Shown here: positions 13,597 through 53,776 of the stretch, one piece after another
How the letters are laid out: each line of letters opens with the position of its first letter
How positions within the stretch are numbered: the stretch's first letter is position 1
Assembly: GCA_964503595.1 (NCBI GenBank)
Contig: CAZDAM010000002.1
Span: 9,335 to 73,334, forward strand
Source of the DNA: an uncultured bacterium
Lineage (GTDB): Bacteria; Muiribacteriota; UBA6191
Reading direction: 5' to 3'
Length of the DNA stretch: 64,000 bases
Made by a program: the position numbers and the translations under genes
The notes under the pieces: generated by a model
Databases searched by the model: none
What the model was told of the DNA's origin: nothing
The model's input: only the letters and a program-made list of their open reading frames with translations

Positions 13597-13608
13597 TAAT
13601 CTGATTCC

Positions 13609-15528: not shown

Positions 15529-15549
15529 CAGAGTAGAAGGGAGAAGCCT

Positions 15550-16185
15550 ATGGCTCTTGCGTACCAGAATCAGCAGCTTGGACAATACAAGCGTATGAAG
15601 ATTGAAACGGCCACGCCGGAGATGCTCATTCTCATGCTCTATGACGGGGCTGTGAAGAACATCACTCTGGCCCGTGAAATCATGGGGGATCGATCTAAAA
15701 TCGATCAGTGCAGTAACCATTTTATCAAGGCTCAGAACATCATCACAGAATTGATGGTTTCCCTGAATTTTGAAATCGGGGGCGAAATTGCCCGCAACCT
15801 TTTCAACATCTACGAATTCATCAACTACACCTTGGCCCAGGCCAATATCACCAAATCCGAAGAAAATCTGGATACCGTGATCACCATGCTCAAGGATCTC
15901 AAGGGCACCTGGCAGGAAGTCATCCGTATCAATCGCGAACGCTACCCGGCCGGTCTTCCATCCGCAGAAGAGATTGCCGCCCGCGAGGGTCGTCCCAGCC
16001 CGGATCCTCAAGGTGGAGTCAATCCTCTGGCCCGTACGGAAAATATGGATGTTGCGGCCAGTGAGGCCGAAGAACCGATACCTGCTCCCGAGCCGGAGAA
16101 GTCCGTAACTTCCAGTACCCGACCCCAGCCTGGCCAGCAGAACCGTTTCAAACAGATTTACGGCAAAGTTCTGTCCCGCAAGTAA
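15550..16185 (+). CDS. fliS: Flagellar export chaperone FliS with Pro/Glu-rich C-terminal extension
   Basis: MALAYQNQQLGQYKRMKIETATPEMLILMLYDGAVKNI matches the FliS N-terminus; four-helix-bundle length plus ~70-aa low-complexity tail. Confidence 0.85.
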   Translation: MALAYQNQQLGQYKRMKIETATPEMLILMLYDGAVKNITLAREIMGDRSKIDQCSNHFIKAQNIITELMVSLNFEIGGEIARNLFNIYEFINYTLAQANITKSEENLDTVITMLKDLKGTWQEVIRINRERYPAGLPSAEEIAAREGRPSPDPQGGVNPLARTENMDVAASEAEEPIPAPEPEKSVTSSTRPQPGQQNRFKQIYGKVLSRK

Positions 16186-23694: not shown

Positions 23695-24396
23695 TCAACG
23701 CAGGAAGAAAAGGATCCTGCGTTCGATCGAAGAATCTCCCAGCCTCAAAGTGCTGGTTTCTTCGTAAAATTTCCTCAGACCGGCAATCTGAGCTTTGCGG
23801 GAAGCCTCCAGAAGCTCCTCATCACTCATTCCCGGTCCTTTGGTCAGGACAATACCCTTTGAAACAGTAGGAGCCAGAATTCCCACCAGTTCGCCAGCCT
23901 GGGCTACAGCCCTGGCAACACTGACGTCTACCCTGCCATAGGCACGGGCAAACTTCTGGGCATCCCTGGTTTTCCAGTTGGCATGAAAAGCCCGTCCGCG
24001 AACAGAAAGCTCCTGCATCACCCGATTGACAAAATCAACCTTCTTATTGCGGGCATCCACCCCAAAAAGCTTCAGTTCAGGATATCCAAGAGCAATCGGA
24101 ATTCCCGGAAAACCGCCGCCACAGCCAAAATCAAGCATACTGGAAATTTTTCTTGGGCCGAAATACGCACGCATCACCCGAAAAATCAGCCAGGAATCCA
24201 TATAGTGTTTCAGCACCGCATCCTCTAAAGAAATAATCCGAGTCAGGTTGTGGCGGGTGTTCTCATCTACCAGAAGGGCGTGAAATTTCTGCCAGAGGGG
24301 CAGGATCCGAGCCGATGGATCGCCGCCTTCCTCAAGCCATTCTCCTGCCTGGGACCAGATCTTTGTACTCTCGCATGGGTTGCCAGTTTCATTCAT
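23695..24396 (-). CDS. rsmG: 16S rRNA (guanine527-N7)-methyltransferase RsmG (GidB)
   Basis: SAM-binding motif LDFGCGGGFPGIPIAL and conserved RsmG core; true start may be an internal Met. Confidence 0.8.
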   Translation of the reverse strand: MNETGNPCESTKIWSQAGEWLEEGGDPSARILPLWQKFHALLVDENTRHNLTRIISLEDAVLKHYMDSWLIFRVMRAYFGPRKISSMLDFGCGGGFPGIPIALGYPELKLFGVDARNKKVDFVNRVMQELSVRGRAFHANWKTRDAQKFARAYGRVDVSVARAVAQAGELVGILAPTVSKGIVLTKGPGMSDEELLEASRKAQIAGLRKFYEETSTLRLGDSSIERRILFFLR

Positions 24397-24787: not shown

Positions 24788-24791
24788 TGAG

Positions 24792-24862
24792 AGCGGGTGA
24801 ACAGAATCGAACTGTCGTAGCCAGCTTGGAAGGCTGGTGCTTTACCACTAAGCTACACCCGC
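24792..24862 (-). tRNA. tRNA-Gly (anticodon UCC)
   Basis: Minus-strand cloverleaf folded by hand: acceptor GCGGGTG/CACCCGC, anticodon stem CCAGC/GCTGG with loop CUUCCAA, T-loop TTCGATT; 71 nt, no encoded CCA. Confidence 0.7.
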
Positions 24863-24877
24863 AGTCTGCCCTATGAA

Positions 24878-24952
24878 TCGGACATGCAGGATTCGAACCT
24901 GCGACCCCCTGTTCCCAAAACAGGTACGCTAGCCAGGCTGCGCTAATGTCCG
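24878..24952 (-). tRNA. tRNA-Pro (anticodon UGG)
   Basis: Minus-strand cloverleaf: acceptor CGGACAT/ATGTCCG, anticodon stem CCTGT/ACAGG with loop UUUGGGA, T-arm GCAGG-TTCGAAT-CCTGC; 75 nt. Confidence 0.75.
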
Positions 24953-25008
24953 ATGTCTTAGGACAGCCGCAGTTATATCATGAGCAGGATCAACGGTCAA
25001 GAAAGTTT

Positions 25009-27008: not shown

Positions 27009-27533
27009 ATGAAAATCAACACCTCCCGCTTTGGCGAGATTGATGTGCCTGATGAGGACATCATTACCTTTCCCTATGGAATTCTGGGATTTGACAAGTC
27101 ATCCCAGTATGTCATCCTCAATGATCCTGCCACTGAACCTCTCCGATGGCTTCAGAGCATTCAGGAAGACGATCTGGCCTTCGTGATCATCGACCCCTTG
27201 CGCTTCAGGGTCGAATACGAACTCGATCTTTCCGATGAAGATGTCGAAAGTCTGGAACTGACATCCCCGGAGGAAGCCATCACCTATGCCATTGTGGTTA
27301 TTCCCAAGAATGAACCCCAACGTATGACGGCCAATCTTCAGGGCCCCATCGTCATCAACGCTGCCAAAATGGTGGCCAAGCAGGTCATCTCCACAAACCC
27401 CCAGCACAGGCTCAAGCATTTCGTCCTCGAAGAAATGCGATCCATGATGCTTGCCCGCAAGAAATCCGAGCGCCCTGATCTGAAGCTGAACCGCAAACAG
27501 CATCCATCGAAAACGGGTCAGGGAGGCGTATAA
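27009..27533 (+). CDS. fliW: Flagellar assembly factor FliW
   Basis: ITFPYGILGFDKSSQYVIL, LAFVIIDPLRF, MTANLQGPIVIN are diagnostic FliW segments. Confidence 0.85.
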   Translation: MKINTSRFGEIDVPDEDIITFPYGILGFDKSSQYVILNDPATEPLRWLQSIQEDDLAFVIIDPLRFRVEYELDLSDEDVESLELTSPEEAITYAIVVIPKNEPQRMTANLQGPIVINAAKMVAKQVISTNPQHRLKHFVLEEMRSMMLARKKSERPDLKLNRKQHPSKTGQGGV

Positions 27534-34024: not shown

Positions 34025-35044
34025 TCAGGTAATCAGTTCGTCTTCGCCACCTCGGGAGATCACCAGATCTCCGGCCTCTTCCAGGGTACGAACCACATTG
34101 ACGATTTTCTGCTGAGCCTCTTCCACGTCCCTGATTCTGACCGGACCCATAAAGGCCATGTCGTCCTGAAGCATCTGCGCCGCACGTTTGGACATGTTTT
34201 TGAGGAATTTCGATTTGACGTCGTCGGAGGAACCCTTGAGAGCAAGCCCCAGATCCTTGGTGTCGATTTCCTTGAGAACCCTCTGAATTCCGCGGTCGTC
34301 GAGCATGTTGAGATCCTCGAAAACGAACATGCGCTTTTTGATTTCCTCGGCAAGATCCGGATTCTGGATTTCCAGGTTGTCAATAATGGTTTTCTCAGTA
34401 CCACGATCGACGATATTAATGATTTCCACCAGAGAGTCCACCCCCCCCACCGTGGTGTAATCGGTAGACGATACCGTAGAGAGCTTCTTTTCCAGAATGG
34501 CTTCCACATCACGGACGATCTCAGGAGAAGTTCTGTCCATAAGAGCCAAACGCTTGGCTGCCTCCACCTGAATTTCCGAAGGGAAGCTGGAAAGAATCGC
34601 CGCCGCCTTGTCTGGTTGCAGATAGGCCAGAATGAGAGCAATCGTCTGGGGATGCTCACCGGAAATGAAGTTCTGAAGATGTTCCGGATCCGCTGCACGA
34701 ATCAAATCAAAAGGCTGGACCTCAAGAGAGGATGTCAATTTGGAAATGATGCTCTCCGCCATGTCATCACCCACTGCTGAACGCAGGAAATCACGGGCTG
34801 CGGAAACACCTCCCTGGGTGATGAACTCCTGAGCTTTGAGCATATTATAGAACTCTTCAACCACCAGATCCCGATCCTCGGGTTCCACCTTGCGAATCTT
34901 GGCAATTTCTATGGCAACGGATTCCATCTCTTCTTCGGTCAAAAGCTTCACTACATCCCGTGACAGATCCGGCCCCAGAAACATCAGAAAGATGGCCACT
35001 TTGATGCGGGCCGTAAGTTCTTTCTTTTTCGTAGGACTTGCCAT
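34025..35044 (-). CDS. fliG: Flagellar motor switch protein FliG (stand-alone copy)
   Basis: 339 aa; FliG N, middle and C-domain signatures (ILAYLQPDKAAAILSSFPSEIQVEAAKRLALMD; MFVFEDL; DDMAFMGPVRIRDVEEAQQKIVNVVRTLEEAG). Confidence 0.9.
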   Translation of the reverse strand: MASPTKKKELTARIKVAIFLMFLGPDLSRDVVKLLTEEEMESVAIEIAKIRKVEPEDRDLVVEEFYNMLKAQEFITQGGVSAARDFLRSAVGDDMAESIISKLTSSLEVQPFDLIRAADPEHLQNFISGEHPQTIALILAYLQPDKAAAILSSFPSEIQVEAAKRLALMDRTSPEIVRDVEAILEKKLSTVSSTDYTTVGGVDSLVEIINIVDRGTEKTIIDNLEIQNPDLAEEIKKRMFVFEDLNMLDDRGIQRVLKEIDTKDLGLALKGSSDDVKSKFLKNMSKRAAQMLQDDMAFMGPVRIRDVEEAQQKIVNVVRTLEEAGDLVISRGGEDELIT

Positions 35045-35055: not shown

Positions 35056-37020
35056 TTAGAGCGGTTCGTCAATTCCCGGCAGCTGAGGTTTAACGCTCAA
35101 AGCGGCTTCATACCCGATGCGAAAACCCAAACCCTGGCCAGTTCCCTGCTTCAGGTAGACCTGAATCGTCAGTTCTTCCTGCTTGAAGTCCCAGTCCAGT
35201 CGGCCTTCAAGACAGTCCCAATCCCGGACCAGACCAAGTTTTACACGAGTGAATTCTTCCGTCAATGCATTGTAATGGTTCTGCGTTGTCACAAAGACTT
35301 TTGGATGAACATAAAACTCGGCCATCTGGGTGAAGGACTCCCAGGTGTTGCCTCCCCAGTCATACTGCCCCCTCAGATCAAAGCTCCACTGCCCTGTTTC
35401 CCTAAGCGTGAAATTAAAAGAAGTCCGATCCAAAGAAAGATCAAAAACGTCATCCGGAACCGCTCCCAGATCATAGCCCGCCTGGACTCCAAAAGCCCAG
35501 GGCCGGCCATTCCAGACACTGCGATAACTCACAGCCGAACTAGCACCATTCCAGAAGCCTGTTTTGTAATCATAGGCCGCCTGGAAAAGAGTTGCCGAGT
35601 ACTGATCCCTTCTCAGGTGAAGACGATGGGTCAGACGCTTCTGATCCGTCAGACGATCGTAGGAAGTCCAGGGGGAGTTTCCATGCGTATCATTCAGGTT
35701 GAAGCGGCTTACATAAGTCAGGCCACTGCCCAGATCCTGGATCAGGCCGGCATTCAGACGCACAAACCTTCGCTCTCCACCAACCGAGTAATCGTTATAG
35801 CGGCCCAGCACATTGAAATCAAAGCGGGTTCGGCCCCACTGAACCGTATCCTGGATAAAATTGACCCAGAGTTCACGGTCTTCACTATCCACCCTTGAGG
35901 TAAAGCTTTTTTCCGAATAATTGGCAAATTTGGTCCCGTAGCGCATCTGAAAAGGAGAAATCCCCAGTCTTCTGGTCGGAGAGTCCAGACGGATTTCCGG
36001 GCGTTTCTCAAAGCTCTGAACCCGATTGTCCAGGATATAATCACCCTTATCCAGATCATAGCGGGCCTGATATTCACCACTCAGGGCAAAACCGGAATCA
36101 AAACGATGCTTCCAGACAACGGAATAGTTCAGTTCCTCATTTGCCGAACCAACATCAAAAGCATCCCTTAAATAATCAAGCCGCAGAGTTCCGTAGGAAT
36201 CTTCCGTCGCCTCAAAACGCTGATCCCAGGTTGTGCGCAATGTCTCGGTACGAACAAATTCATCCCTCTGCATATCAAGGGTCAGTCGCCCCGGATGCTT
36301 GGTCTGCTGGAAAGCTTCGATTTCAGCATCCCATTCAAGCCCCTGACGGGAGGTCGGCGTCACCCCAAGGGTTCCGTAAAGATTATCATTTACAAAAAAA
36401 TTCGAGCGGATTCTCGCATGCACACCCCGTGAAGAATCATAACCAGGGATGATGAACAAGGGAGCAGAAAGCTGACTGTCCTTATTGATCTTGAGCTTGT
36501 AGGCAGGCAAAGAAAACAGGCGGGTATTGCCAATATAGAATCTGGCTCCCTTCAGAAAAAGGGCCTCCTGATCCAGAAGTACCATTTCATCCGCCATGAT
36601 TTTGTAGTGGCAGTTGTTTTCTTCACAGGTGGTGGCATACCCCTTGTTCAGCTGCATGCTGGTCGGCATGAGAATCGCTGACTGCCCGACAACAAAAGTG
36701 TTTTCGAGAACGGCCTTGAATTCTTCCACACGGCCTTCACGGGTGCGAACATTGTAAAGCAGGCTATCTGCATTGAGAATGTCCTCACCCCGAATCAGGC
36801 GCACATTGCCCTGGGCCGCAATATCACCGGTATTGAGATTGTACTGAAGGTTGTTGGCATCAATCTGAAAATCGTGGCCCAGAATCGAAGCATGGTCCTT
36901 AAGCACCACGAAGCCTGCAGCCTGGTTGTATTCCTGATAGCCCGCGCTGAAGCTGATCGGTACGGGACCGTCCGACCAAAGGGGGTACAAAAGACAAAGA
37001 AAAGTCAGAAAAATACGCAT
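35056..37020 (-). CDS. lptD: LPS-assembly protein LptD/OstA-like outer-membrane protein
   Basis: OstA_N-like region ANNLQYNLNTGDIAAQGNVRLIRGEDILNADSLLYN followed by ~500-aa beta-barrel; start chosen at ATG 37020 (MRIFLTFLCLLYPLW signal peptide) instead of listed ORF start 37167. Confidence 0.6.
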   Translation of the reverse strand: MRIFLTFLCLLYPLWSDGPVPISFSAGYQEYNQAAGFVVLKDHASILGHDFQIDANNLQYNLNTGDIAAQGNVRLIRGEDILNADSLLYNVRTREGRVEEFKAVLENTFVVGQSAILMPTSMQLNKGYATTCEENNCHYKIMADEMVLLDQEALFLKGARFYIGNTRLFSLPAYKLKINKDSQLSAPLFIIPGYDSSRGVHARIRSNFFVNDNLYGTLGVTPTSRQGLEWDAEIEAFQQTKHPGRLTLDMQRDEFVRTETLRTTWDQRFEATEDSYGTLRLDYLRDAFDVGSANEELNYSVVWKHRFDSGFALSGEYQARYDLDKGDYILDNRVQSFEKRPEIRLDSPTRRLGISPFQMRYGTKFANYSEKSFTSRVDSEDRELWVNFIQDTVQWGRTRFDFNVLGRYNDYSVGGERRFVRLNAGLIQDLGSGLTYVSRFNLNDTHGNSPWTSYDRLTDQKRLTHRLHLRRDQYSATLFQAAYDYKTGFWNGASSAVSYRSVWNGRPWAFGVQAGYDLGAVPDDVFDLSLDRTSFNFTLRETGQWSFDLRGQYDWGGNTWESFTQMAEFYVHPKVFVTTQNHYNALTEEFTRVKLGLVRDWDCLEGRLDWDFKQEELTIQVYLKQGTGQGLGFRIGYEAALSVKPQLPGIDEPL

Positions 37021-37090
37021 GTGCAGAGGTCTTCTACAGGAACCGCAGAATATAACAAAAACAGCCAAAAACGGACAGTTTTGAATGAAA

Positions 37091-38095
37091 TTACTCCGTA
37101 CGATCTTTACCCGTACGCAGGATGATTTCATCCATGGCTTCTTCAGCGAGAGCCCGGAGCTCGCCATCTCCGGCTTCTCTTAACCTCAGAAGGGTTTTAA
37201 TTGCCTTGCGATCACCCGCAAATTTCAGAATCATCACGGATTCCACCTGAACCACCTGATTTAAAGTCGAGCGGATTTCCTTGAGGAGAGGCCCTTGAGC
37301 ATCGAGCCCGAATTTGACCAAGGCATCCCTGACATTACGCCGGATGACAAAAGAAGGATCCGATAAAAGAGAAATCAGAATGGAAATATGAGCTGTATTT
37401 CTCAATTCCCCCATGGAATAGATGGCCCCCACTCTTTCATGATCCTGGCGGGAATATACCATTTCTTCAAGGGTCCGGCGAGCCGACTCATCTTCTCCAT
37501 GCCTAGACAGAACCATCGCTACATTGGCCCTCATCCTCACATTGGAGTCCTCCAGATAGGGTTTGAGAATCGGCGCCACCATGGAAGTGGAATAGAACCC
37601 AAGGCCCTCAACGGCATTGGCTCTGACACGGGAATCTTGATCCTCAAGATAGGCTGCAATGATGGGAATCAGTCTTTCTTCCTGAAAGGAACCCAGATGC
37701 TTCACCAGAGTGGCCCGCACCTTGGGATGGGTTTCCGAATCCAGATACTGGACAAAGGCTTCCCCTGCCTTCTGGCAGTTTCTCTGCCCCAGACCTTCGA
37801 CCGCCCGGATCCGAACCCATTCATCCGAATCACCAAGAGCAAACAGAAGGGCATCGTCCACATTGGGAGCATCCAGCTTCCTAATGCCAACAACAGCCGC
37901 ATAGCGCACTGAAGGATGCTCATCATCAAGGGCTTCCCGCAGAAGAACCGCTTTTTCTACATCGTGACAGGAAGAGGCCGAAACCTGCTTGACCCTGACA
38001 AAACGCTGTTCCCAGGAGCTGTCAGCCAGCTCATCGTCAAAATCATCGCTGTCCAGAAAATCTTCGAAATCACCGCGCATAATACCTCTGTCCAA
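37091..38095 (-). CDS. PBS-lyase HEAT-like repeat protein
   Basis: Repeated motifs SVRYAAVVGIRKL, DEWVRIRAVEGLGQ, KVRATLVKHLG, RVRANAVEGLG, NVRMRANVAMVL typical of HEAT_2/PBS-lyase repeats. Confidence 0.7.
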   Translation of the reverse strand: MDRGIMRGDFEDFLDSDDFDDELADSSWEQRFVRVKQVSASSCHDVEKAVLLREALDDEHPSVRYAAVVGIRKLDAPNVDDALLFALGDSDEWVRIRAVEGLGQRNCQKAGEAFVQYLDSETHPKVRATLVKHLGSFQEERLIPIIAAYLEDQDSRVRANAVEGLGFYSTSMVAPILKPYLEDSNVRMRANVAMVLSRHGEDESARRTLEEMVYSRQDHERVGAIYSMGELRNTAHISILISLLSDPSFVIRRNVRDALVKFGLDAQGPLLKEIRSTLNQVVQVESVMILKFAGDRKAIKTLLRLREAGDGELRALAEEAMDEIILRTGKDRTE

Positions 38096-38260
38096 TATAC
38101 ATCAAAACCACGAATATCGCGGCAATCCAACTGTCACTGACTTCATCACCTTCGGGAAGGCGCCACTTATGAATGCGTTCAATCATAATCAATTCACAGT
38201 AACTGACAATCTCTGAAATGAAAAAAGCCGGGCTAAGAGCCCGGCCAGAACCTCTGGAAA

Positions 38261-39970
38261 TCAGTAATGCATCAGGGACTGTACCCCGTAATCTTTCAGG
38301 CGCTCACGACCTTCCAGAAAATCGAGCTCAATCAGAAACATCATTCCGGCCACCTTGCCCCCGGACTTTTCAATCAGAAAAGCCGTTGCCTCTGCTGTGC
38401 CTCCGGTTGCCAGAACATCATCAATGACCAGAACGGACTGGCTCTTGACGATTCCTTCCTGAATCTCAAGCGTAGCTTCTCCGTACTCAAGAGCATAGGA
38501 ACGGCTTAGAACCGGTCCTGGCAACTTCCCGGCCTTGCGAATGGGAACAAACCCAACCCTGAGGGCCTGGGCCAAAGCCGCCCCCAGAATAAACCCGCGG
38601 GATTCCACTCCGGCAATCAGATCAACCTGGCGGTCCTTGATCAGCCCCTGAAAAAGCCGGATGACATCAGAAAGACCATTGGGAGCCGCCAGTAAAGGAG
38701 CGATATCCTTGAAAACCACCCCGGGTTTCGGAAAATCCGGAACATCCCTCACGAGTTCCTTCAGACGCCCGAGGGCGGTGCGAACCCGTTTGGACTGCAA
38801 ATCGGTAAAGACCTTGCGGGTAAAATCCTGAACCCACTCTTCACTGATCTGCTCTTTCTGCTGCTTGATTTCCCCAATCCGGCTTAAAGCCACCATGGCG
38901 TTTTTCTTGACGTATTCCGAGGAATCCCGCAAAGCATCCACCAGATCCAGAGTGGAATCCTCAACACCGATTTCTCCAAGTGCCTGGGCTGCTGAAGCCC
39001 TGACCGACCAGAAGGAATCATGCTTGAGAATATGGGTGATCTGATCGAGCATTTCCTTGGCCTGCAAGTCCCCCAGAACCTTCACTGCCCAGTAGCGGAT
39101 ATCCGTATTTTTACTTTTTAAGGCACGCGAGAGTTTTTCAATACAGGAATCCCCAAGTTCCCACAGGGTTTCAGCCGCCTGCTTCCTGACAAACCAGTTG
39201 GCATCCCCAAGCATCTGAATCAGAGGATCAATGATTTCCGGGGTATCCATGGAGCGCATGCCCTGAATGATGGATTGCTTCTGATCTACCGGAAGCTCCT
39301 CATCCATGAGCTTCACCACCAAAGCCTTGCAGGCCTTGCTGCCACCGACTTCACTTAGAACCTGGATGGCCCAGAACTCCCGATCATGATGCCCGCAGTT
39401 CAAAACTCCAATTACTTCATCCACGCAAAGCTGCCCAAGCTGAATCAGACCGCTGGCAGCAGATTTTCGAATTGTCCACTGAGTGTCATCCAGACAGTGA
39501 ATCAATGGCTTGACAGCTTCCCGGACCCCGGTTCTTCCCAAGGCCGAAATCGCACAGAGCTTCGCCGGGAGTTCCTCCCCTTCAATCAGAGAAACCAGGG
39601 TTTCTACCGAGCGGCTCCCGAACTGGGAAATCACTTCGCTGATCCAGAACTGAATATCGTCATCATTGCTGCGGGCCATATCCAGAAGAGTATCCAGATA
39701 ATGGCTGCCCAATCCGGCAAGGACTCTGGCCGCATTGCGCCTGACACCCCAGGAGGAATGCTTCAGGGCTCCAATCAGATGGGGAAGAGCACGCTCTCCA
39801 TATCCTTCCAGCACCTTGACTGCTTCCTGGGAAACCGCTTCATTATCATCGCCTAACGCTTCGATCAGAAGCGAGATTGATTCAGCTCCCGGTTTATCCT
39901 TGAGCGATGCCACGGTTTCACGGCGCACCCGGTAATCCACATCCTGTAAAGCTTCCAGAATTGCTTTCAT
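38261..39970 (-). CDS. apt: Fusion protein: N-terminal PBS-lyase HEAT repeats (~390 aa) + C-terminal adenine phosphoribosyltransferase
   Basis: C-terminal 170 aa match APRT (FKDIAPLLAAPNGL, VDLIAGVESRGFILGAALA, PRPP motif VLVIDDVLATGGTAEA); N-terminal RRETVASLKD, WGVRRNAARVLAGLG etc. are HEAT repeats; start ATG overlaps the dnaN stop (ATGA). Confidence 0.8.
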   Translation of the reverse strand: MKAILEALQDVDYRVRRETVASLKDKPGAESISLLIEALGDDNEAVSQEAVKVLEGYGERALPHLIGALKHSSWGVRRNAARVLAGLGSHYLDTLLDMARSNDDDIQFWISEVISQFGSRSVETLVSLIEGEELPAKLCAISALGRTGVREAVKPLIHCLDDTQWTIRKSAASGLIQLGQLCVDEVIGVLNCGHHDREFWAIQVLSEVGGSKACKALVVKLMDEELPVDQKQSIIQGMRSMDTPEIIDPLIQMLGDANWFVRKQAAETLWELGDSCIEKLSRALKSKNTDIRYWAVKVLGDLQAKEMLDQITHILKHDSFWSVRASAAQALGEIGVEDSTLDLVDALRDSSEYVKKNAMVALSRIGEIKQQKEQISEEWVQDFTRKVFTDLQSKRVRTALGRLKELVRDVPDFPKPGVVFKDIAPLLAAPNGLSDVIRLFQGLIKDRQVDLIAGVESRGFILGAALAQALRVGFVPIRKAGKLPGPVLSRSYALEYGEATLEIQEGIVKSQSVLVIDDVLATGGTAEATAFLIEKSGGKVAGMMFLIELDFLEGRERLKDYGVQSLMHY

Positions 39971-41106
39971 GCTACCCTCTGAGTCAAAGACATGATCACA
40001 CAGACAAAGCGCCCCTCTCCCTCGGCCTGTTCTTCAGGCCAGAAGTAAACCGGCATTTCTTCACCTTCACAAAACAGGCTGATACGATCGGATTCCACCG
40101 AACCCAGAAAATCAAGAACATATTTGGAATTCAGGGCAACGCTCAGGCCTTCCAGTTCCTGCGATTCCACTTCAAGCTCTCTCCAGCCTGTTCCCATTTT
40201 ATCCGAGAAAGACTCCATTCCAAAAGACGAACCCTTCACCTGGAAGGAAACCCGGTTGCCAATATCGCGGGAAACCGGCATCAGGCCCCTGAGATGATTG
40301 GTAAGCGGAAGACGGGGAAGGGCGATACTGCGCTCACCAAGGTCTTCGGGAAAGAAACCCTCGTAATCCATGAACTGACCTTCTGCCAGCATGGTCTGGA
40401 AAATCAGGCTTCCATGGCGGAGCAGAACGCGGCCTCCACCCTGCTGAAACTCCACTTCATCATCCGGAAGAATTTTCAGAAGATCCTGCACCGAAGCCAG
40501 ACTGAGCAGCCATTCCAACTGAAGCTCTTCAAAACCTTCGAGGCCCAGGACAGATTCCGCAAGCCGCCAGCCATCCTGAGAAGCAATCTTCAGACTGCCA
40601 TTCTCGGCGAAAAGTCTTACCCCGTGAAAGCCCTGAACCGTATTCTCAGTCTGGGCAGATGCATGGGCTCCAAACTTCAGGGCCTTCTTGAGACGGGCAC
40701 CATGCAGAAGAAAGGAAAGATCTGCCTCAAGAAGTTCCACATTGGGGTATTCCTGCACATCACGGGTCATTGCCTCGAAGCGGGCCCCAAGATCAGGCAC
40801 AGCAATCAGAAGGCGCCGGTTTTCGAGGTTTTCCAGCAAAATGGGATGCCGATCGGATTCCGGCATACTTCTGACACACTCAGAGAAAAACTGCCCCTGA
40901 ACCAGAGCTTCGCCCTCTGAATCGACCTTTGCAGGAATTTCAGTCGAAATGAAAGTCTTCAGATCCGTGGCTGCCATTTCCAGCACGCCACCTTTGGCAC
41001 GCAGGCGGATGCAGGTTAACTCCAGAATGGAAGTACTGCCCGGCAAAGCCCTCTGGACAACTTCAAGACCTTTTAAAAGTTCCGCACGTTCGCAATGAAT
41101 TTTCAT
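39967..41106 (-). CDS. dnaN: DNA polymerase III beta sliding clamp (divergent DnaN)
   Basis: 379 aa; MKIHCERAELLKGLEVVQRALPGSTSILELTCIRL...ATDLKTFIST parallels DnaN domain I; C-terminal VALNSKYVLDFLGSV parallels the DnaN domain III motif. Confidence 0.75.
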   Translation of the reverse strand: MKIHCERAELLKGLEVVQRALPGSTSILELTCIRLRAKGGVLEMAATDLKTFISTEIPAKVDSEGEALVQGQFFSECVRSMPESDRHPILLENLENRRLLIAVPDLGARFEAMTRDVQEYPNVELLEADLSFLLHGARLKKALKFGAHASAQTENTVQGFHGVRLFAENGSLKIASQDGWRLAESVLGLEGFEELQLEWLLSLASVQDLLKILPDDEVEFQQGGGRVLLRHGSLIFQTMLAEGQFMDYEGFFPEDLGERSIALPRLPLTNHLRGLMPVSRDIGNRVSFQVKGSSFGMESFSDKMGTGWRELEVESQELEGLSVALNSKYVLDFLGSVESDRISLFCEGEEMPVYFWPEEQAEGEGRFVCVIMSLTQRVA

Positions 41107-41578
41107 GCTGGCCCCTCTCTTTTAAAGATTTTTTTTCGCGAAGGAATGAAAACACAGGGAGATTGGGATCGCAAAGACGAAAAAAGAGCCCCTCGCAGCA
41201 ACAAGCGGCCAGGGGCTCTTTCCTAAGAAACCAAATCCAGACGCTCCCACATAAGTTCACCCGTCATTTTCAGCTCTGTCCCGACTTCATGCTGAAACCA
41301 CTTTCCAGGACTGTTCCGAAAATCGTAGTCAGAAGTATTCGGACTTCAAGAATTAAAACGATCCACTCCTTGTTGCCCTCTTGACAGACAGGGTAAAATA
41401 ATTTCGAGGGCGTTGATCCGTGCGTCCTGCGACAGTGGAAGACTCCGAACCCCGCCAGGTCTGTGATGGAAGCAACGGCAGGATGCGCTTTCAGGTGTTT
41501 CAGGGTTTCCGTGCGGGGAGTCCTCTTTTCTTTTTCCAGATTCTTGACACATTTTACATGTGGCTTAAGGTCCTTGAC

Positions 41579-43567: not shown

Positions 43568-43882
43568 CTAAACTAGCTTCTCATCAATAACGTTTTGTAT
43601 AAGCCTTGCTGCATGGAAAATGGTTACGATTTCTATGCTGTCCTCTCTGACTCGATAGACTATGCGGTAAGACTTGTGAATCCTCTCTCTTAAGTCTTCC
43701 CGTCCGTATTCAGGAACGATACGCCCAGAGCTTGGAAATGGTGCCGCCTTCTCAATCAAAAAGATTACCTTTTCGGCTGTGACTTTAGCGTAATAAGCAG
43801 AACGATTTGCGATGTATTCGCAAACTCTCTCTAGATCACCAGCAGCTTTTTCAGACCAGACTACCCTTAGCTTTCGAGCCAT
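43568..43882 (-). CDS. RelE/ParE-family type II toxin
   Basis: 104 aa; ...RIVYRVREDSIEIVTIFHAARL typical RelE/ParE C-terminal beta-strand motif; overlaps the upstream small antitoxin gene by 16 nt. Confidence 0.7.
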   Translation of the reverse strand: MARKLRVVWSEKAAGDLERVCEYIANRSAYYAKVTAEKVIFLIEKAAPFPSSGRIVPEYGREDLRERIHKSYRIVYRVREDSIEIVTIFHAARLIQNVIDEKLV

Positions 43883-44351: not shown

Positions 44352-45635
44352 GTGCGGCACACTCCGAAAATTCCTTTGATGCGTGCATTTCTACGCCTGA
44401 TCGGCCCAGCTTTTGTCTTCATGGCGCTTTCATCGCCGGGATTTGCCCTGCTCATGAAAGGCAAGATCGAGCTGGTCAAGGGCCAGGTGTATGTGTACCG
44501 CGAGGGCCGCACCCTTCAGGCTGTGGATGATATGAACCTCTATACCGGGGACATTCTGGAAACTTCCCGCTCTGGCTCCATTATGGTCCAGATGATGGAC
44601 ATGGGACTTCTGAAGCTCAAGCACTCCACCCAGGTACATTTTCCTGCTCAGGATGAAAACCAGATCCAGGTTTCACGCATGAATCTGGAATTTGGTGAAA
44701 TCTGGACACGGGTTCGCCCCCTTCAGGTCGGCGAGAGCTTTCAGATCAAAACCCCGCATACAACAGCCATGCTCAATGGAACCATTGCCGTTCTGGGTCA
44801 TGACACCCGTCGCAAGAAATCGAGCTTCTCCGTCATTGAAGGCCGGGCTGAAGTGCACCGCAGCCAGGATCATTTCTTTCTGGATACCTCCGACAAGCTG
44901 GTTCTGGACATTCGAGCCAATTCCAGAGAAAGAAAAAGCCGGATTGATGTCTTTGTTCTCAACCAGGAATGGAAGGATCTGATCACAATCCGGGAAAAAG
45001 TTGTTCGTCGCCTGAAGCGCGAGCAGATGATGACAGATGTCAACGGTGGAGCAGACTTTGAAAAGCCAGTGGTTCACATCGTCAGCCCCCGCGCTGAAGC
45101 ACCTCAGAAAAAAGCCCTGGTCGAACTCAGGGCCACGGTTTATGACCCCAGTCTTGAGCGGATCATCATCCGTATCAATGGCAAGGTCATCAAGGACCTT
45201 CAGACAGGGCTCTCCGAAATTGTCCAGAATATCGAACTGATTCCTGGCCTGAATGAAATCGAAGTCGAGGCCATTGATCGCTTTGGAAACACGGGCCGGG
45301 ATCTGCGCGAAATCCGGCTTTCGGAAATCCCGCCGGTCATTACCCTGTTTCAGCCCATCGATCAGGATGAACTGACTTCCAGATTTGTCGATTTGCAGGG
45401 AGTCGTGGATGATCCTGATGTAAGAGAAGTCCAGGTTTACCTGAATGGCCGTCGTATTGCCCGGGATCGGGCTACTCCGACATTTCTGATTCCCATCATT
45501 TTAGATATAGGCCACAACCGGATTCGGGTCACAGCCACCAACGGCATTGGCCTGAGCGGCGAAACCGAAATCGAAGTCTATACCGACACCAACGCCAACC
45601 TCATCATCAACTTTGATGAGATTCTGAACCAATGA
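44352..45635 (+). CDS. Secreted FecR-domain protein with C-terminal Ig-like repeats
   Basis: Signal peptide; VYVYREGRTLQAVDDMNLYTGDILETSRSGSIMVQM resembles the FecR fold; repeated beta-rich C-terminal modules; ATGA coupling to the next ORF. Confidence 0.5.
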   Translation: MRHTPKIPLMRAFLRLIGPAFVFMALSSPGFALLMKGKIELVKGQVYVYREGRTLQAVDDMNLYTGDILETSRSGSIMVQMMDMGLLKLKHSTQVHFPAQDENQIQVSRMNLEFGEIWTRVRPLQVGESFQIKTPHTTAMLNGTIAVLGHDTRRKKSSFSVIEGRAEVHRSQDHFFLDTSDKLVLDIRANSRERKSRIDVFVLNQEWKDLITIREKVVRRLKREQMMTDVNGGADFEKPVVHIVSPRAEAPQKKALVELRATVYDPSLERIIIRINGKVIKDLQTGLSEIVQNIELIPGLNEIEVEAIDRFGNTGRDLREIRLSEIPPVITLFQPIDQDELTSRFVDLQGVVDDPDVREVQVYLNGRRIARDRATPTFLIPIILDIGHNRIRVTATNGIGLSGETEIEVYTDTNANLIINFDEILNQ

Positions 45636-47380
45636 AACCGAAATTTCTCATTCTCACCCTGCTTGCCACCGGCCTCTGGGCCACGGCTGCGGCATCCTCG
45701 GATACCCTTGGGGAATATCTGAGCATGATTGAGAATTCATCGGATTTCACCGATGCCGAGAAGGACTTCGCCCGCTCCCTGATTTATGAGGCAAACGGGG
45801 ATGATTCGCTTCTGGACATGGTTCTCAAATCCCCTCATGTTCCCGAGCGCTCCAAACAGCTGGCCAAAAATTTTCTGACCACTGGCAAGGAGCCCGATAA
45901 AATCCGCTATCGTGATCCGGCAATGGATCCTGATTTTGAGCTCCGAAGCCCTCCTACCCGATTTCACGGGGATTTGAGCCTGAGGCTTCAGGATATCTAT
46001 ACCCGAAACGATATCTCAGATTACTTCCAGCTGAACAATGCCCACTATTACCGGGGTTTTGAAAGCCGTCTGGAAGGCCAGATCCGCTGGGCTCCCGAAG
46101 TGGAGAATGCCCCAACTTATGGCTATCTTGACTTAAGAGTCAGAACCCGTGATCCGGAAACCGAAATCGTCAACGCCTACATGCACAACCGGGAAAACTG
46201 GTATGCAGCAGGGACATATCTTGAGCCTTATACAACCGAATTCGGCCTGAAAAACACCGAGATCACGGGTTTTGCCGGTCATTTTGAATGGCTTAAGAAG
46301 TGGCGGGTGGATCTCATTGCCGGGGAAACCGTAGAAGATTATGTCACCGGTCTGAATGGACTGGAAACCATGGGATTCTATCTCACCAGGGACATTGGCC
46401 GGGGTGGAGCCGACAGAAGCGGCCTCTCTTACTACTACGCCAATGACGTCCACTACTATGGTCTGACCCAGGATCTCAAGCTTTATGACGGACTTACCCT
46501 GCACGGCGAATACATGCAGCGTGAATCCACAACCAGGGCCAGCAACCGGGGTGGTGCCTGGGAATTCGAACTCGACTATGAAAAAGACAAGGTTCTGTGG
46601 CAGAACGAATACCAGAGGATTACCCCAAATTTCAGTTCAACCCTGAACCCCGAATTCACCTATCTTACCGGTGTTCAGACCGATCGTGTCCAGCAGGAAT
46701 CGAGTTTCACCTATCGTTTCGATCCATGGGTGGCCTCCTCGGCGACCTTCCGCCAGTATAATCTGGATCCGGTTGGCATTCGTCCAGAAATTTCCTTTAC
46801 GGATTACACCTGGACACTTTCGACCCAAAGGCCTGGAAAGCCGATTTACATGGTAGTCCTCAAAGGGAATAACCGTGATGATGGGGCATTTACCGTAGAT
46901 GAAAACAATTTCATCGGCATGGGCAGAACCGTTTTCAAGAACCGGGATCTGATCACCAGCGTGGAGTTCCTAAGAACCGATCATAATGACAAACTTCAGC
47001 CCAGGCTTTCCTATCTTCAGCATGCCATGGGAGTGGAATTTTCCCGTCCCTTCATGAAAAGACTGAAACTGAAGGAAAGAATCCGTTTCATCGACAGTCA
47101 GGTAGAAGACCCCACTTTGAGTCATGAAGCCCTTTCCCATCATCTTCAGGCCCGCTATCAGGTGGATCAGCGCACCACCCTTACGGGAGAGCACCGCTAC
47201 CGCCGGGTTACCTCCACGGCTTTCCCGGACAAATACAAAATCCAGCTCGCCCTGGAAGCCCGCCGCAGAATTGATGAAAACTCTTCGTACTCATTTCGGG
47301 CCGAGTCTTTCAACTATGACGAATTCGGGCGCGGGTACGATGCCCGTCTGTTTCAGGCCGGAATGGACTTTTCATTCTGA
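45632..47380 (+). CDS. Outer-membrane beta-barrel protein (hypothetical, 582 aa)
   Basis: Signal peptide MKPKFLILTLLATGLWATAAA; Tyr-rich alternating strands; C-terminal ...GMDFSF. Confidence 0.5.
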   Translation: MKPKFLILTLLATGLWATAAASSDTLGEYLSMIENSSDFTDAEKDFARSLIYEANGDDSLLDMVLKSPHVPERSKQLAKNFLTTGKEPDKIRYRDPAMDPDFELRSPPTRFHGDLSLRLQDIYTRNDISDYFQLNNAHYYRGFESRLEGQIRWAPEVENAPTYGYLDLRVRTRDPETEIVNAYMHNRENWYAAGTYLEPYTTEFGLKNTEITGFAGHFEWLKKWRVDLIAGETVEDYVTGLNGLETMGFYLTRDIGRGGADRSGLSYYYANDVHYYGLTQDLKLYDGLTLHGEYMQRESTTRASNRGGAWEFELDYEKDKVLWQNEYQRITPNFSSTLNPEFTYLTGVQTDRVQQESSFTYRFDPWVASSATFRQYNLDPVGIRPEISFTDYTWTLSTQRPGKPIYMVVLKGNNRDDGAFTVDENNFIGMGRTVFKNRDLITSVEFLRTDHNDKLQPRLSYLQHAMGVEFSRPFMKRLKLKERIRFIDSQVEDPTLSHEALSHHLQARYQVDQRTTLTGEHRYRRVTSTAFPDKYKIQLALEARRRIDENSSYSFRAESFNYDEFGRGYDARLFQAGMDFSF

Positions 47381-50220: not shown

Positions 50221-51031
50221 TCAGGTACTCCAGGCAGGGAGATTTTTCAAGAAACCCGGCCTTCAGAAGTTCCCGGGCAAAAACGGCCAGTCCCAGCCAG
50301 TCTCTGGCTTCCGGAAAATAGTGCAGTTTGCGACCGAGAAAATCGACAAAATCCCGGTAACTCAGATGTCGCGAATCCTTTTCCCAAAGTTCCTTGAGAT
50401 GCATCTGACCCCAGGCTGCCGAGGATGTCAGTGCACTCAGAGCTTTCAGGATTTCCTGTGGGAATTTCTGGTAGGAGTCCTTACGAATCACCCATAGGGC
50501 AAAGACAAAGGGGAGTCCGGTTACAGATTTCCAAAGAGTCGCCAGGTCATGACAGATCACCTGCTCCTCCCCAAGCATGGTCTGGGCATGATCCCCGATC
50601 AAAACTGCGCCGTCATAAGAGGAAAAAATCTGGCTTACGGTCTCGGTCTGCAAATCCTCTTGCTCCTGATAGATAAACTCTGTATCCACACCAAGATGGG
50701 ACAAAAGAAGCTGGGCCAGATGAATCGATGTTTCACTGGCTCCACTGAGAAGAATCCGGCCGCCTGAAATCTCTGAAAGCCGTTTTTTCGTGACCAGAAA
50801 GACCGAACCGGCTTCTTCTCTGGCCGCGATCAGAAGATGGGGCCAGATGAGATACTGATCAGAGTTTCTTAAGGCCTCAAAGGAGGAAACTGCCGAGATA
50901 TCAAGTTCACCGCCAGCAATCGCCCGGTTCAGCCGCGAGGGGACTTCAAACACCAGCAAAGCATTTTCCGGGTGAAAACGGGCATTGGGCACAACGCCAT
51001 TGGTAAACGGAAGCATTCCGATTCTAAGCAT
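50213..51031 (-). CDS. mqnA: MqnA/MqnD-family menaquinone (futalosine pathway) biosynthesis protein
   Basis: MLRIGMLPFTNGVVPNARF...GGELDISAVSSFEAL pattern of MqnA-like periplasmic-binding-fold enzymes. Confidence 0.55.
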   Translation of the reverse strand: MLRIGMLPFTNGVVPNARFHPENALLVFEVPSRLNRAIAGGELDISAVSSFEALRNSDQYLIWPHLLIAAREEAGSVFLVTKKRLSEISGGRILLSGASETSIHLAQLLLSHLGVDTEFIYQEQEDLQTETVSQIFSSYDGAVLIGDHAQTMLGEEQVICHDLATLWKSVTGLPFVFALWVIRKDSYQKFPQEILKALSALTSSAAWGQMHLKELWEKDSRHLSYRDFVDFLGRKLHYFPEARDWLGLAVFARELLKAGFLEKSPCLEYLNV

Positions 51032-51091
51032 AAGGGAATTCTACCACGCCCCAATTCCGACCCGGTGTATTCATGGTGTATCCTTGCCCTC

Positions 51092-53776
51092 ATGAACAAT
51101 TTAGACAAACTCCTGCAAAAACCTCCCCAGGAAATCGTGAGCCAGATCCTGAACGCTCTGGTTCAGGCCGAATGGAATGAAAGACGCCAGACCGCCCTGA
51201 GTCTGGCCCAGATGGGGCCTGAAGGCCTGGATATACTGATGCAGGCTACCGAGAATGCCAAAGAAACCGAACTGGTTCAAACTGGCTGCTTCTGGGCAGA
51301 TTTTGTCTTCTTTCAGCTCAAAAGCGGCCAGGAGGTCTGTAGCCTGCGGCGTATCTACGAAGCCTCGGATGCCAGCATCCGCAAACGGACTCTTGAACGT
51401 CTGATCGATGCCCCGATTCTCTCCGAATCCCAGCCTTTCCTGTATCTAGCTCTGGGGGATGAATCCTGGGATGTGCGGGAACGGGCCTGCCAGGGATTCC
51501 TGAAACTGGGCCGGGAAGTCGTCCCCTTTCTGGAAGAGCGCTTTCAGCACGGAAACTCCCATCAGCGATACTGGACTTTCCGCATTCTCGCCCGCCTGCT
51601 GGGCCCGGAAGCCATCAAGAGCTTTTCCAACTTCTTCAAACTGGATCCAAAAAACGAGGAACTGCAGATTTTTGCCGTCTCCAATCTGGGAGAAATCGAT
51701 GAGCCCCGGATTGTCCGCACCCTGCTCAATTTTTTGCGGACAGAATCCTTTTTCATCCATGAAGAAGTTCACCGAAGCCTGAAAAAACTGGTCCGCACCC
51801 AGTTTGAGGAAATGATTCAGATTCTGGAACAGGAACCGGATGTGCGTACTGCCGAGACTCTCTTCAGGGTTCTGGAATCCGCTCTGAATGACACCATTCT
51901 GGAGCGGGCAAAGACTCTGCTTCAGAGTGAACACTATCCAACCCGCTATATGGCTATCTCCCATCTTGGAACCTACCCCTCCCAGCTCTGTGCCCGCCTC
52001 CTTCTGAAATGCTTTGAAGACCCCAAATGGGGCCTGAGACGCCAGGCCATGGAGAAGCTCTGCCAACTGGGCACCTATGCCATCCCCGCTCTTCTGGAAG
52101 GACTGGAAAGCAAAAGCGGCAATCAGATTTTCTGGTCTTTGAAAAGCCTCATCCAGCTTCGTGAGCCTTCCACCCTTCCGGCAATTGCATCCATCCTGAG
52201 GGAAAGCCCCAGTAAGGAGCACCGCATGATGGCTCTGGAAGCCGCTGCCATCCTTCAAAGTGAGGATTCGCCGGAAGTTCTGCTGGAAGCTTTTGACAAT
52301 TCCATGTGGGAAGTCCGCCAGAAAGCCAGCGAACTTCTGCCCCTCCAGAAATTCCATCCTCTGGTTTCTCTTCTGTCCGGGGCAATCAGTGACAGCAACA
52401 ATATCCGCTTCTGGTCATTGCGAACCCTCGAAAGCATCGGGGCCAAAGGGGCCGAGTCCCTGCTGCATCAAATCCAGACCCAGACCGACAACAACCCCTG
52501 GAACTGCATCCGCCAGCTAAGACTGGCCAATCAGGGAGTCCTGAAGCGAGAACTGGAAAAAAGTCACCCGATTCTTTCCCAGATTGAACTGACCATCCAT
52601 GATGATAAAGCCTCTGCCCCCGCATCTGGTGGACCTCAGCAGATCGTCATTCAGCAGGCTTTGGGAATGGAAAGTCTGTATCACGTCAAACTTCCCGAAG
52701 CTGAAGGCCTGAACGCCTATCCCATCTCCGTCGATGAGATGTTTGAACAGGCCTGCAATCTTTCCGCTTCTGACATCCACCTCAAAATCAGCCATCCTCC
52801 AATCCTCAGGGTTCAGAACAAACTGATCACCATGCGCCACCCTGCCCTGAGTACGGGAAACCTGGTTCTGATTGTGCGTCAGCTTCTCTCTCAGCAACTG
52901 GTCCGCTACCTGGAAACCAATCACCAGGTGGACAGCTCCTACGAGTCCGACAAAGGCCGCCGTCTGCGCCTCAATATCTTCAAAACCCGCCTGGGCTATG
53001 AAATTGCCGGGCGTTTCATTACTGAAAAACTGCCTACGTTTGAATCCCTGAACCTGCCTGTGAACATCATGCAGAAACTGGCCAACATGGAAACAGGACT
53101 GGTCATTCTGACCGGCCCGACCGGTTCCGGCAAGACTTCCACGCTCGCCGCCATGATTCACTACATCAACCTGCTCTATCACAAGCACATCATCTGCATT
53201 GAAGATCCGATTGAGTACATCCATAACTCCAAGCTTTCCTATATTTCACAAAGGGAGATTCTAAGAGATGTTCCTTCCTTCCCCATGGGAATCCGGGCAA
53301 CTCTTCGCGAGGATCCCGATGTGATTCTGGTCGGAGAGCTTCGCGATCAGCAAAGCGTGGAAACAGCCATGACCCTGGCCGGTACCGGTCACCTGGTTCT
53401 GACAACCCTGCATGCGCCGACTTCCACAACCGCCGTCGAACAGCTGATGGACTTTTTTGCCGAGGAACAGCAGGCCCATATCCGAAAGCAGGTTGCCTTC
53501 AACTTGAGAGCCATCATTTCCCAAAGGCTTCTGAGGCATAAAAACGGGAAGGAACGGGTCCCTGCCTGTGAAGTTCTGATTGCAACCCCTGCCGTCAAAA
53601 ACATCATCCGGGATGGAAAAACCGAGCAGCTTCAGACCATGATTGAAACAAGCAAGAAAGAGGGCATGATTGCCCTGGATCAGTCCCTGAAGAACCTTCT
53701 TGATATGGGCAGAGTCACCTTCGAAGAAGCCTGGCCCCACGTCATTGATCAGAAGACATTTCGCGGGGGGAATTAA
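51092..53776 (+). CDS. pilT: Fusion protein: N-terminal ~520-aa HEAT/PBS-lyase repeat region + C-terminal PilT-type type IV pilus retraction ATPase
   Basis: C-terminus GLVILTGPTGSGKTSTLAAMI (Walker A), DVILVGELRD (Walker B/Asp box), His-box TTLHAPTSTTAVEQL, and the PilT-characteristic AIISQRLL; N-terminal repeats (DVRERACQGFLKLG, GLRRQAMEKLCQLG, WEVRQKASELL) are HEAT-like; start placed at ATG 51092, divergent from mqnA. Confidence 0.8.
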   Translation: MNNLDKLLQKPPQEIVSQILNALVQAEWNERRQTALSLAQMGPEGLDILMQATENAKETELVQTGCFWADFVFFQLKSGQEVCSLRRIYEASDASIRKRTLERLIDAPILSESQPFLYLALGDESWDVRERACQGFLKLGREVVPFLEERFQHGNSHQRYWTFRILARLLGPEAIKSFSNFFKLDPKNEELQIFAVSNLGEIDEPRIVRTLLNFLRTESFFIHEEVHRSLKKLVRTQFEEMIQILEQEPDVRTAETLFRVLESALNDTILERAKTLLQSEHYPTRYMAISHLGTYPSQLCARLLLKCFEDPKWGLRRQAMEKLCQLGTYAIPALLEGLESKSGNQIFWSLKSLIQLREPSTLPAIASILRESPSKEHRMMALEAAAILQSEDSPEVLLEAFDNSMWEVRQKASELLPLQKFHPLVSLLSGAISDSNNIRFWSLRTLESIGAKGAESLLHQIQTQTDNNPWNCIRQLRLANQGVLKRELEKSHPILSQIELTIHDDKASAPASGGPQQIVIQQALGMESLYHVKLPEAEGLNAYPISVDEMFEQACNLSASDIHLKISHPPILRVQNKLITMRHPALSTGNLVLIVRQLLSQQLVRYLETNHQVDSSYESDKGRRLRLNIFKTRLGYEIAGRFITEKLPTFESLNLPVNIMQKLANMETGLVILTGPTGSGKTSTLAAMIHYINLLYHKHIICIEDPIEYIHNSKLSYISQREILRDVPSFPMGIRATLREDPDVILVGELRDQQSVETAMTLAGTGHLVLTTLHAPTSTTAVEQLMDFFAEEQQAHIRKQVAFNLRAIISQRLLRHKNGKERVPACEVLIATPAVKNIIRDGKTEQLQTMIETSKKEGMIALDQSLKNLLDMGRVTFEEAWPHVIDQKTFRGGN

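Follow-up and report, generated by a model that had tools for sequence, protein, structure and literature searches.

The clamp gene dnaN belongs to the canonical cluster rnpA-rpmH-dnaA-dnaN-recF-gyrB of the bacterial replication origin. A separation of dnaA from dnaN has been described before in some groups, such as the Helicobacteraceae (PMC5043019), and is therefore unremarkable by itself. In E. coli K-12 the gene apt, coding for adenine phosphoribosyltransferase (APRT), is located directly upstream of dnaX-ybaB-recR. The latter three genes form a widespread cluster (PMC9610160). Here a stretch of 64,000 nucleotides of an uncultured bacterium is presented (GenBank assembly GCA_964503595.1, contig CAZDAM010000002.1, positions 9,335 to 73,334; GTDB lineage Bacteria; Muiribacteriota; UBA6191). 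In this stretch, referred to below as the window, a divergent dnaN overlaps the start of a gene in which a module of HEAT repeats of the phycobilisome (PBS) lyase type, HEAT1, is joined in frame to APRT. The fusion protein is denoted HEAT::APRT.

It is useful to compare this locus with the two described arrangements. The window contains the same clamp gene family as the canonical origin cluster, and rsmG/gidB is also present in it. However, dnaA, recF, gyrB, a cluster of DnaA boxes and a switch of the GC skew are all absent. In E. coli, apt likewise adjoins a co-directional gene of the DNA polymerase III holoenzyme, but this is the clamp loader gene dnaX and not dnaN. The E. coli apt is also located upstream of its polymerase III gene, not downstream, and codes for a plain enzyme of 183 amino acid residues without a HEAT partner.

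Other fusions of APRT are found in public data. Their partners are a purine nucleoside phosphorylase of the methylthioadenosine phosphorylase type (PF01048), an NTPase (PF01931), methylthioribose-1-phosphate isomerase (PF01008), SecD/F and NUDIX. The phosphorylase, NTPase, isomerase and NUDIX partners are enzymes of nucleotide or methionine salvage, so most of these fusions follow a metabolic logic, while SecD/F is a component of membrane transport. In the present protein, by comparison, APRT is joined to a scaffold of HEAT repeats, which is not an enzyme.

The HEAT::APRT open reading frame (ORF) is located on the minus strand (38261..39970) and codes for 569 residues. The HEAT1 module, a PBS-type HEAT solenoid, spans residues 1 to about 375 (38846..39970, minus strand; PF13646, 241 bits). 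It is followed by a linker of approximately residues 376-401 (38768..38845, minus strand), which takes the place of a zinc ribbon in the unfused HEAT1 proteins described below. The APRT domain, residues 402-569 (38264..38767, minus strand), is recognized by NF002636 (218.4 bits, cut-off 125) and TIGR01090 (195.7 bits, cut-off 185.85). Within it, the phosphoribosyl pyrophosphate (PRPP) motif VLVIDDVLATGGT (38396-38437, minus strand) is intact. Thus the hidden Markov models of the domains agree with the first-pass annotation, which had read HEAT repeats and a complete APRT domain with an intact PRPP motif in this ORF. The motifs VLVIDDVLATGGT, DFPKPG, ESRGF, RKxGKLP and LEYG are invariant among 15 aligned orthologues, and the domain presumably still converts adenine and PRPP to adenosine monophosphate.

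In the AlphaFold2 model of the fusion the mean predicted local distance difference test (pLDDT) value is 84 and the predicted template modelling score (pTM) is 0.56. HEAT1 is modelled as an all-helical solenoid, mostly with pLDDT values of 85-95. The alpha/beta APRT domain is confident as well and superposes on solved APRT structures with template modelling scores of about 0.9 at 42-51% identity. In the linker region the pLDDT values drop below 50 in two segments, residues 387-397 and 411-419, which points to disorder.

The repeat types of the HEAT part, PF03130 and PF13646, are those of the PBS-lyase HEAT-like family, to which CpcE, CpcF, NblB and the alphaRep designs belong. The alphaRep designs, which were derived from this family, are the best structural and sequence matches to the HEAT part. 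The resemblance to the lyases, however, is at the level of the repeats and not of function. With the equivalog models for phycobilin lyases and NblB (NF058515, NF058502 and NF045915), the scores are far below the cut-offs: 101.9 of 220 bits for CpcF, 84.2 of 300 for NblB and 71.3 of 330 for CpcE. No phycobiliprotein family was matched by the scanned ORFs of the window. An AlkD-like DNA glycosylase or a bilin lyase was also considered for HEAT1 and rejected, the only cross-matches being weak, below threshold and typical of HEAT repeats. The closest paralogue of the HEAT1 module inside the window is found in another fusion, an ORF of 934 residues (50972..53776, plus strand) in which an N-terminal HEAT part (PF13646, 113 bits) is joined to a secretion ATPase of the T2SSE/PilB type (PF00437, 130 bits). 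This ORF is 52% identical to its counterpart in L005, a species representative related to the window.

About 20 full-length homologues of HEAT::APRT (569-570 residues, 46-100% identity) were found by protein search, and all belong to UBP17, a candidate phylum that has hardly been studied. NCBI labels them 'adenine phosphoribosyltransferase [Candidatus Cloacimonetes/Cloacimonadota bacterium]', and the closest relatives include 'bacterium UBP17_UBA6191'. The genome NORP72 was assigned to UBP17, 'formerly known as Cloacimonetes' (PMC9426571). The 15 aligned orthologues are contiguous through the junction and their first methionine is invariant. With this alignment and a uniform length of 569-570 residues, a split of the junction into two genes by a hidden stop codon, which the first-pass annotation had considered, is ruled out. 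Identity among the UBP17 orthologues is 41-71% in the HEAT module and 58-68% in the APRT domain; with 31-75%, the linker is conserved least. Judged from these values, the HEAT module is about as conserved as the enzyme domain. Between the window and L005 the fusion is 71% identical, compared with 36-67% for most neighbours.

No protein combining HEAT repeats and APRT outside the UBP17 family was present among the top 150 matches of an exhaustive HMMER search, in which giant HEAT proteins dominate and weaker cases may hide. No literature on such a fusion was found, and nothing relevant on HEAT proteins together with a beta clamp. The HEAT solenoid joined to APRT is therefore an architecture without a description in the papers found, as had been supposed from the sequence, although about 20 database clusters carry it under the simple label of APRT.

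The origin of the fusion becomes apparent from a second lineage in which the corresponding genes are separate. A protein of 451 residues (P0137), found by exhaustive HMMER search, is 40% identical to the HEAT module and collinear with it over 395 residues (E 2e-101). Its C-terminus is a double zinc ribbon in place of APRT, and 25 nt upstream of its gene a C-terminal clamp domain is encoded (PF02768, 65 bits). The family of this protein (P0276-P0288) together with a metagenome scan defines a high-GC metagenomic lineage (59-63% GC), referred to here as lineage 2. The gene order in lineage 2 is ybaB-recR-dnaN-HEAT1-(X)-apt-HEAT2-hprK-LptD-like-pseudopilins, where HEAT1 carries the zinc ribbon. 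X is a protein of 237-256 residues with a predicted N-terminal signal sequence, missing from some loci, and the apt product has 172-175 residues. The pair ybaB-recR, which here directly precedes dnaN-HEAT1-apt, is shared with the E. coli region.

When the best match of each lineage 2 protein was sought among the window proteins tested, each protein hit its positional counterpart. The identities are 23-26% for dnaN, 36-41% for HEAT1, which is collinear, 45-49% for apt, 36-41% for HEAT2 and 25-27% for the LptD-like protein. HEAT1 and apt are direct neighbours in two loci (L036 and L033), and in L036 they share a stop/start overlap TGATG. Since HEAT1 and apt are neighbours in lineage 2, the UBP17 protein can be understood as a fusion of two neighbouring genes. 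On this comparison, HEAT::APRT is evidently the joined form of adjacent genes of an older block, dnaN-HEAT1-apt-HEAT2-LptD-like, although the block, called an ancestral cluster here, could alternatively have been transferred long ago. With both the separate genes and the fused gene at hand, the origin of the fusion can be seen. The two states also lead to a prediction of the 'Rosetta stone' type that HEAT1 and APRT cooperate. The block dnaN-HEAT1-apt-HEAT2 is kept in two deeply diverged uncultured lineages and offers a testable lead on the function of the PBS-type HEAT proteins of bacteria, an abundant and for the most part uncharacterised group.

Tryptophan-containing 'signature' motifs of HEAT1 were tried as a marker of dnaN-linked proteins and rejected, since the same pattern of three repeats occurs in HEAT proteins of about 700 residues from Wallbacteria and others. 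The Wallbacteria relative (L039) has no dnaN nearby. On an unrelated 680-kb metagenome contig (L038, 1..12969), a HEAT1 relative of 704 residues is encoded about 6 kb from an upstream dnaB and 3.7 kb from a downstream dnaN. This proximity may be a coincidence or may reflect a wider link between HEAT proteins and replication.

The clamp gene dnaN (39967..41106, minus strand) codes for 379 residues, which match TIGR00663 and the three clamp domains of Pfam. The first-pass description of this clamp as divergent is a fair one. The dnaN equivalog TIGR00663 is passed only marginally (139.7 bits, cut-off 137.65). The N-terminal PF00712 (70.8 bits) and the central PF02767 (29.1 bits) are above their cut-offs, while the C-terminal PF02768 at 24.5 bits is below its cut-off of 27 bits. 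Nevertheless, residues 1-373 align to the clamp of D. radiodurans (4trt, E 8.8e-28), the best match among the solved clamps, and the pocket motif DGWRLA is present. The UBP17 orthologues of the clamp share 40-48% identity, and the clamp is fast-evolving in this phylum. NCBI annotates these orthologues as DNA polymerase III subunit beta. In lineage 2, by comparison, all three Pfam domains of the clamp are above cut-off, and its gene is located beside ybaB-recR; neither ybaB nor recR was found within 10 kb of the UBP17 loci. Because the syntenic clamp of lineage 2 is canonical on Pfam and located with ybaB-recR, a housekeeping clamp is favoured over a paralogue. The gene thus looks like that of the replicative sliding clamp of the cell, relocated from dnaA. 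In the dnaN gene of a UBA6191 genome (L006, 290..1432) a single in-frame TAG was observed at codon 49, where the closest relative L005 has leucine. It is probably an assembly error and less likely a sign of a pseudogene.

The dnaN stop codon overlaps the HEAT::APRT start codon in the four nucleotides ATGA (39967..39970, minus strand), as read directly in the sequence and as previously noted. Purine runs resembling Shine-Dalgarno sequences precede both ORFs. The UBP17 loci comprise L001-L004, the representatives of eight GTDB species (L005-L012) and another seven loci from metagenomes. In every UBP17 fusion locus examined, dnaN is directly upstream of the fusion gene on the same strand. The gaps between the two genes are -4 (window), 4, 4, 19, 22, 22, 33, 33 and 108 nt. 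Since the gaps are 4-108 nt in the other UBP17 species, the ATGA overlap is lineage-specific and the adjacency is general. The flanking groups, a FecR-like gene with the gene of a 582-residue protein and the group HEAT2-LptD-like-fliG, flip their orientation around the pair of dnaN and the fusion gene in the UBP17 loci. The pair itself is never split.

An intrinsic-terminator-like hairpin with a T-run, TTTTTTCATT (38226..38246, minus strand; stem of 9 bp, 7 of them GC pairs), is located directly 3' of the fusion stop codon and before HEAT2 in the window. A promoter-like site, TTGTCA-16-TATGAT (38182..38209, minus strand), is located before HEAT2 and matches the consensus in 10 of 12 positions; it is a consensus match only. 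From the hairpin after the fusion gene and the promoter-like site before HEAT2, dnaN and HEAT::APRT look like a bicistronic unit. In the first-pass annotation dnaN was placed at the head of a long minus-strand array. The genes are indeed co-directional, but a single unit is an overstatement, given the terminator-like hairpin in the window and the trio of HEAT2, LptD-like and fliG genes, whose orientation to the pair is reversed in other UBP17 species.

The stretch of 470 bp upstream of dnaN (41107..41576) is non-coding, and it is not an origin. DnaA of B. subtilis was used solely as a probe. In 8 of 8 Firmicutes control loci, which were those returned by the genome scan, it located dnaA as the gene directly preceding dnaN. 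It gave no match in the 64-kb window, in any UBP17 locus or in any lineage 2 locus. Pfam scans of essentially all window ORFs of at least 150 residues also contained no DnaA, RecF or GyrB, in agreement with the first reading of the clamp flanks. The possibility that dnaA lies just past the 470-bp gap is ruled out as far as the contig reaches, about 28 kb upstream. The contig (ENA ERZ23491156, scaffold_130; 106.8 kb) ends about 5.8 kb past the last large ORF of the window (63316), and carA, carB and BREX genes occupy this end.

The proposed checks of DnaA boxes and GC skew were carried out, and neither marks an origin in the window. No DnaA box with one mismatch or fewer is present in 41107-41576. 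The plus-strand GC skew is negative in every 2-kb bin and its sign never changes over the 64 kb. By gene strand, it is -0.08 for plus-strand genes (third positions -0.20) and -0.11 for minus-strand genes (third positions -0.12). The uniformly negative skew on both gene strands indicates that the whole window belongs to one replichore. An origin beside dnaN was thus rejected on three grounds, the lack of a DnaA-box cluster, of a skew switch and of dnaA up to the contig end. A regulatory RNA in the upstream gap was also rejected, as an Rfam scan matched no family there and gave a total of two tRNAs for the whole window. Nor was a conserved small ORF seen in the gap; those that precede dnaN in L001 and L003 are without a counterpart in the window. 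The locus is a phylum-level case of a clamp gene without linkage to dnaA or the origin, which is relevant to automated origin prediction in metagenome-assembled genomes (MAGs), as this relies on the proximity of dnaA and dnaN. The gene rsmG/gidB (23695..24396, minus strand), often origin-proximal elsewhere, is located about 17 kb from dnaN beside tRNA-Gly and tRNA-Pro (24791..24953), and no skew switch is seen there either.

We consider it probable that the locus is an origin-distal housekeeping operon of a flagellated UBP17 bacterium, in which dnaN is followed by an in-frame HEAT1-apt fusion derived from an old cluster. An ancestral cluster dnaN-HEAT1-apt-HEAT2-LptD-like would have been kept unfused in lineage 2, preceded there by ybaB-recR. 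The HEAT1 ancestor would have been a PBS-type HEAT protein of about 440 residues whose C-terminal zinc ribbon was lost on fusion. That HEAT1 and APRT are fused argues that they function together, and by the 'Rosetta stone' logic HEAT1 may be a protein-binding scaffold acting with APRT, either tethering or regulating the enzyme. The link to the clamp could be mainly one of co-expression of replication and purine salvage, comparable to apt-dnaX-ybaB-recR in E. coli. On present evidence the locus is built from ordinary housekeeping parts and does not reveal a new kind of system.

Several observations weigh against this interpretation. Between UBP17 and lineage 2 the APRT domains are 45-49% identical, which is no more than their identity to the APRT of Francisella (about 50%), so that gene order is the basis for regarding the apt genes as orthologous. 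The wider family of HEAT proteins of about 700 residues also shows the HEAT 'signature' motifs, and HEAT1 is accordingly taken as orthologous on the strength of collinearity, length and gene order. In the AlphaFold2 model the HEAT part is not confidently placed against APRT, and a tight intramolecular complex is thus unsupported. Co-transcription of dnaN and the fusion gene is presumed from spacing and strand only, and comparable terminators were not consistently seen at the other loci in a crude scan. The UBP17 loci are visible as 10-kb flanks of MAG contigs, which limits the view of dnaN and apt as single-copy genes.

The adjacency to dnaN might instead be an inherited order without function; only the HEAT1-APRT fusion would then be relevant, or the fusion would be neutral too. 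Synteny is generally high in UBP17, where the FecR-like gene and its 582-residue partner, a family 2 glycosyltransferase (GT2) gene, HEAT2 and the LptD-like gene are also conserved, and the one-base overlap of HEAT1 and apt in L036 means that one small deletion or frameshift could fuse them. The model, with two independent domains on a floppy linker, is consistent with neutrality as well. Such an order, however, has survived very low clamp identity while the flanks differ (ybaB-recR in one lineage, the FecR-like pair in the other). The HEAT module is strongly constrained at 41-71% identity, comparable to the enzyme domain, and the fusion is more conserved than most of its neighbours in the comparison with L005. 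We regard the explanation by inherited order as rather doubtful. An adaptor role has been considered as well and appears unlikely: HEAT1 or HEAT::APRT would be associated with the clamp or the replisome, the solenoid binding the clamp or a protein of the recR/ybaB vicinity. The APRT could in this way be placed or regulated at sites of replication or repair, or its phosphoribosyltransferase (PRT) domain could report the adenine or PRPP status. The adjacency of dnaN and HEAT1 in all of about 22 loci of two lineages, with clamps only 23-26% identical, would fit this role, as would the integrity of the pair amid rearranging flanking genes, the position of the lineage 2 block directly after ybaB-recR and the HEAT1 relative of about 700 residues between dnaB and dnaN in L038. 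Adjacency alone, however, is no demonstration of binding. No conserved canonical clamp-binding motif (of the QL[SD]LF type or the hexapeptide) was found by a regular-expression scan of the 15 orthologues, which degenerate motifs could escape; the Wallbacteria relative has no nearby dnaN, and in L038 unrelated genes intervene in the 3.7 kb between the HEAT gene and dnaN. It is slightly less probable still that HEAT1 is an unrecognised partner of the clamp or of the RecR/YbaB machinery which couples the salvage or sensing of adenine and PRPP to replication or gap repair. If this were true, the UBP17 fusion would hard-wire the enzyme to its adaptor.

A further alternative is a clamp paralogue serving repair, defence or a mobile element, with the true dnaN located beside dnaA elsewhere. 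The divergence of the clamp, which barely passes TIGR00663 and has its C-terminal Pfam domain below cut-off, would be in keeping with this, and the view is limited to contig fragments rather than whole genomes. Nevertheless, the locus is vertically inherited across the whole phylum, the clamp gave zero matches to the PADLOC defence models, and the locus is not accompanied by a polymerase, nuclease or integrase gene or by any other gene of mobile elements or defence. For the fusion, PADLOC returned generic HEAT-ARM matches and one weak match to the PRT domain of ShosT (E 2e-4). A word-index search with the clamp gave only seven matches and says little about paralogues. In 8 of 8 matching UBP17 species genomes only one locus each was found for the clamp patterns of the clade. 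Taken with the canonical syntenic clamp beside ybaB-recR in lineage 2 and the NCBI annotation, these results make a paralogue very improbable. Of the two alternatives offered in the first-pass annotation, the relocated housekeeping dnaN with a novel partner is thus retained, while the non-replicative clamp is disfavoured by the lineage 2 gene order and the PADLOC result. The window derives from a metagenome scaffold, and the HEAT::APRT ORF could in principle be an artefact of assembly or sequencing that joins two genes. This is effectively refuted, as independent assemblies from NCBI, ENA, JGI, Logan and TARA share the ORF of 569-570 residues.

Downstream of the operon proposed here, HEAT2 (37091..38095, minus strand), a second HEAT-repeat protein, matches PF13646 with 135 bits. 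Its true start is probably near codon 28, as orthologue matches begin at about residue 28. Orthologues of HEAT2 follow the fusion gene in UBP17 or apt in lineage 2, with 36-67% identity. The next gene (35056..37167, minus strand) codes for an LptD-like outer-membrane protein with a weak LptD_N match of 24.6 bits. Identity to its orthologues is 39-42% in UBP17 and, over about 650 residues, 25-27% in lineage 2. In UBP17, and only there, the conserved block closes with fliG (34025..35044, minus strand; TIGR00207, 424 bits). The corresponding block of lineage 2 lacks this gene and contains hprK and genes for pseudopilins instead. HEAT2, the LptD-like protein and FliG, together with an outer-membrane protein, a cupin and a glyoxalase-fold protein, are co-directional as first described.

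FliG is 83-87% identical across UBP17, compared with 36-71% for the neighbouring genes. In the window and in L001-L012 fliG always comes after HEAT2 and the LptD-like gene and is separated from the rest of the flagellar genes. Solo or duplicated FliG paralogues exist, for example FliG1 of Borrelia, and there fliG is likewise apart from fliF and fliH. The FliG of the window differs from these in being a canonical equivalog with other flagellar genes nearby. The term 'solo fliG' used for it at first does not hold, since fliD, maf, fliS and fliW share the same 64-kb window. These genes, the second of which codes for a Maf-type flagellin glycosyltransferase, are located at 10693..16185 and 27009..27533 on the plus strand. 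The organism is probably flagellated.

The FecR-like protein, which has an immunoglobulin-like/glucodextranase-B domain, and the protein of 582 residues without a Pfam match are encoded as a pair at 44352..47380 (plus strand). This pair is next to the dnaN block at every UBP17 locus, though its orientation varies. A toxin gene of the ParE family (43568..43882, minus strand) is flanked by the genes for GT2 and the FecR-like protein. At the end of the source contig, past the window (L021, 16189..18793), the BREX-type proteins BrxL, an ATPase, and BrxB are encoded with a DUF1016 protein. At the other, low-coordinate end of the window, a look-up of the first complete ORF gave no record by which the window could be extended. 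Near this end, an ORF of 333 residues (2731..3732, plus strand) carries a domain of the FUR family at residues 35-144 together with two stretches of FeoA. It overlaps feoB (3729..6125, plus strand) directly downstream and represents an unusual fusion of a regulator with FeoA.

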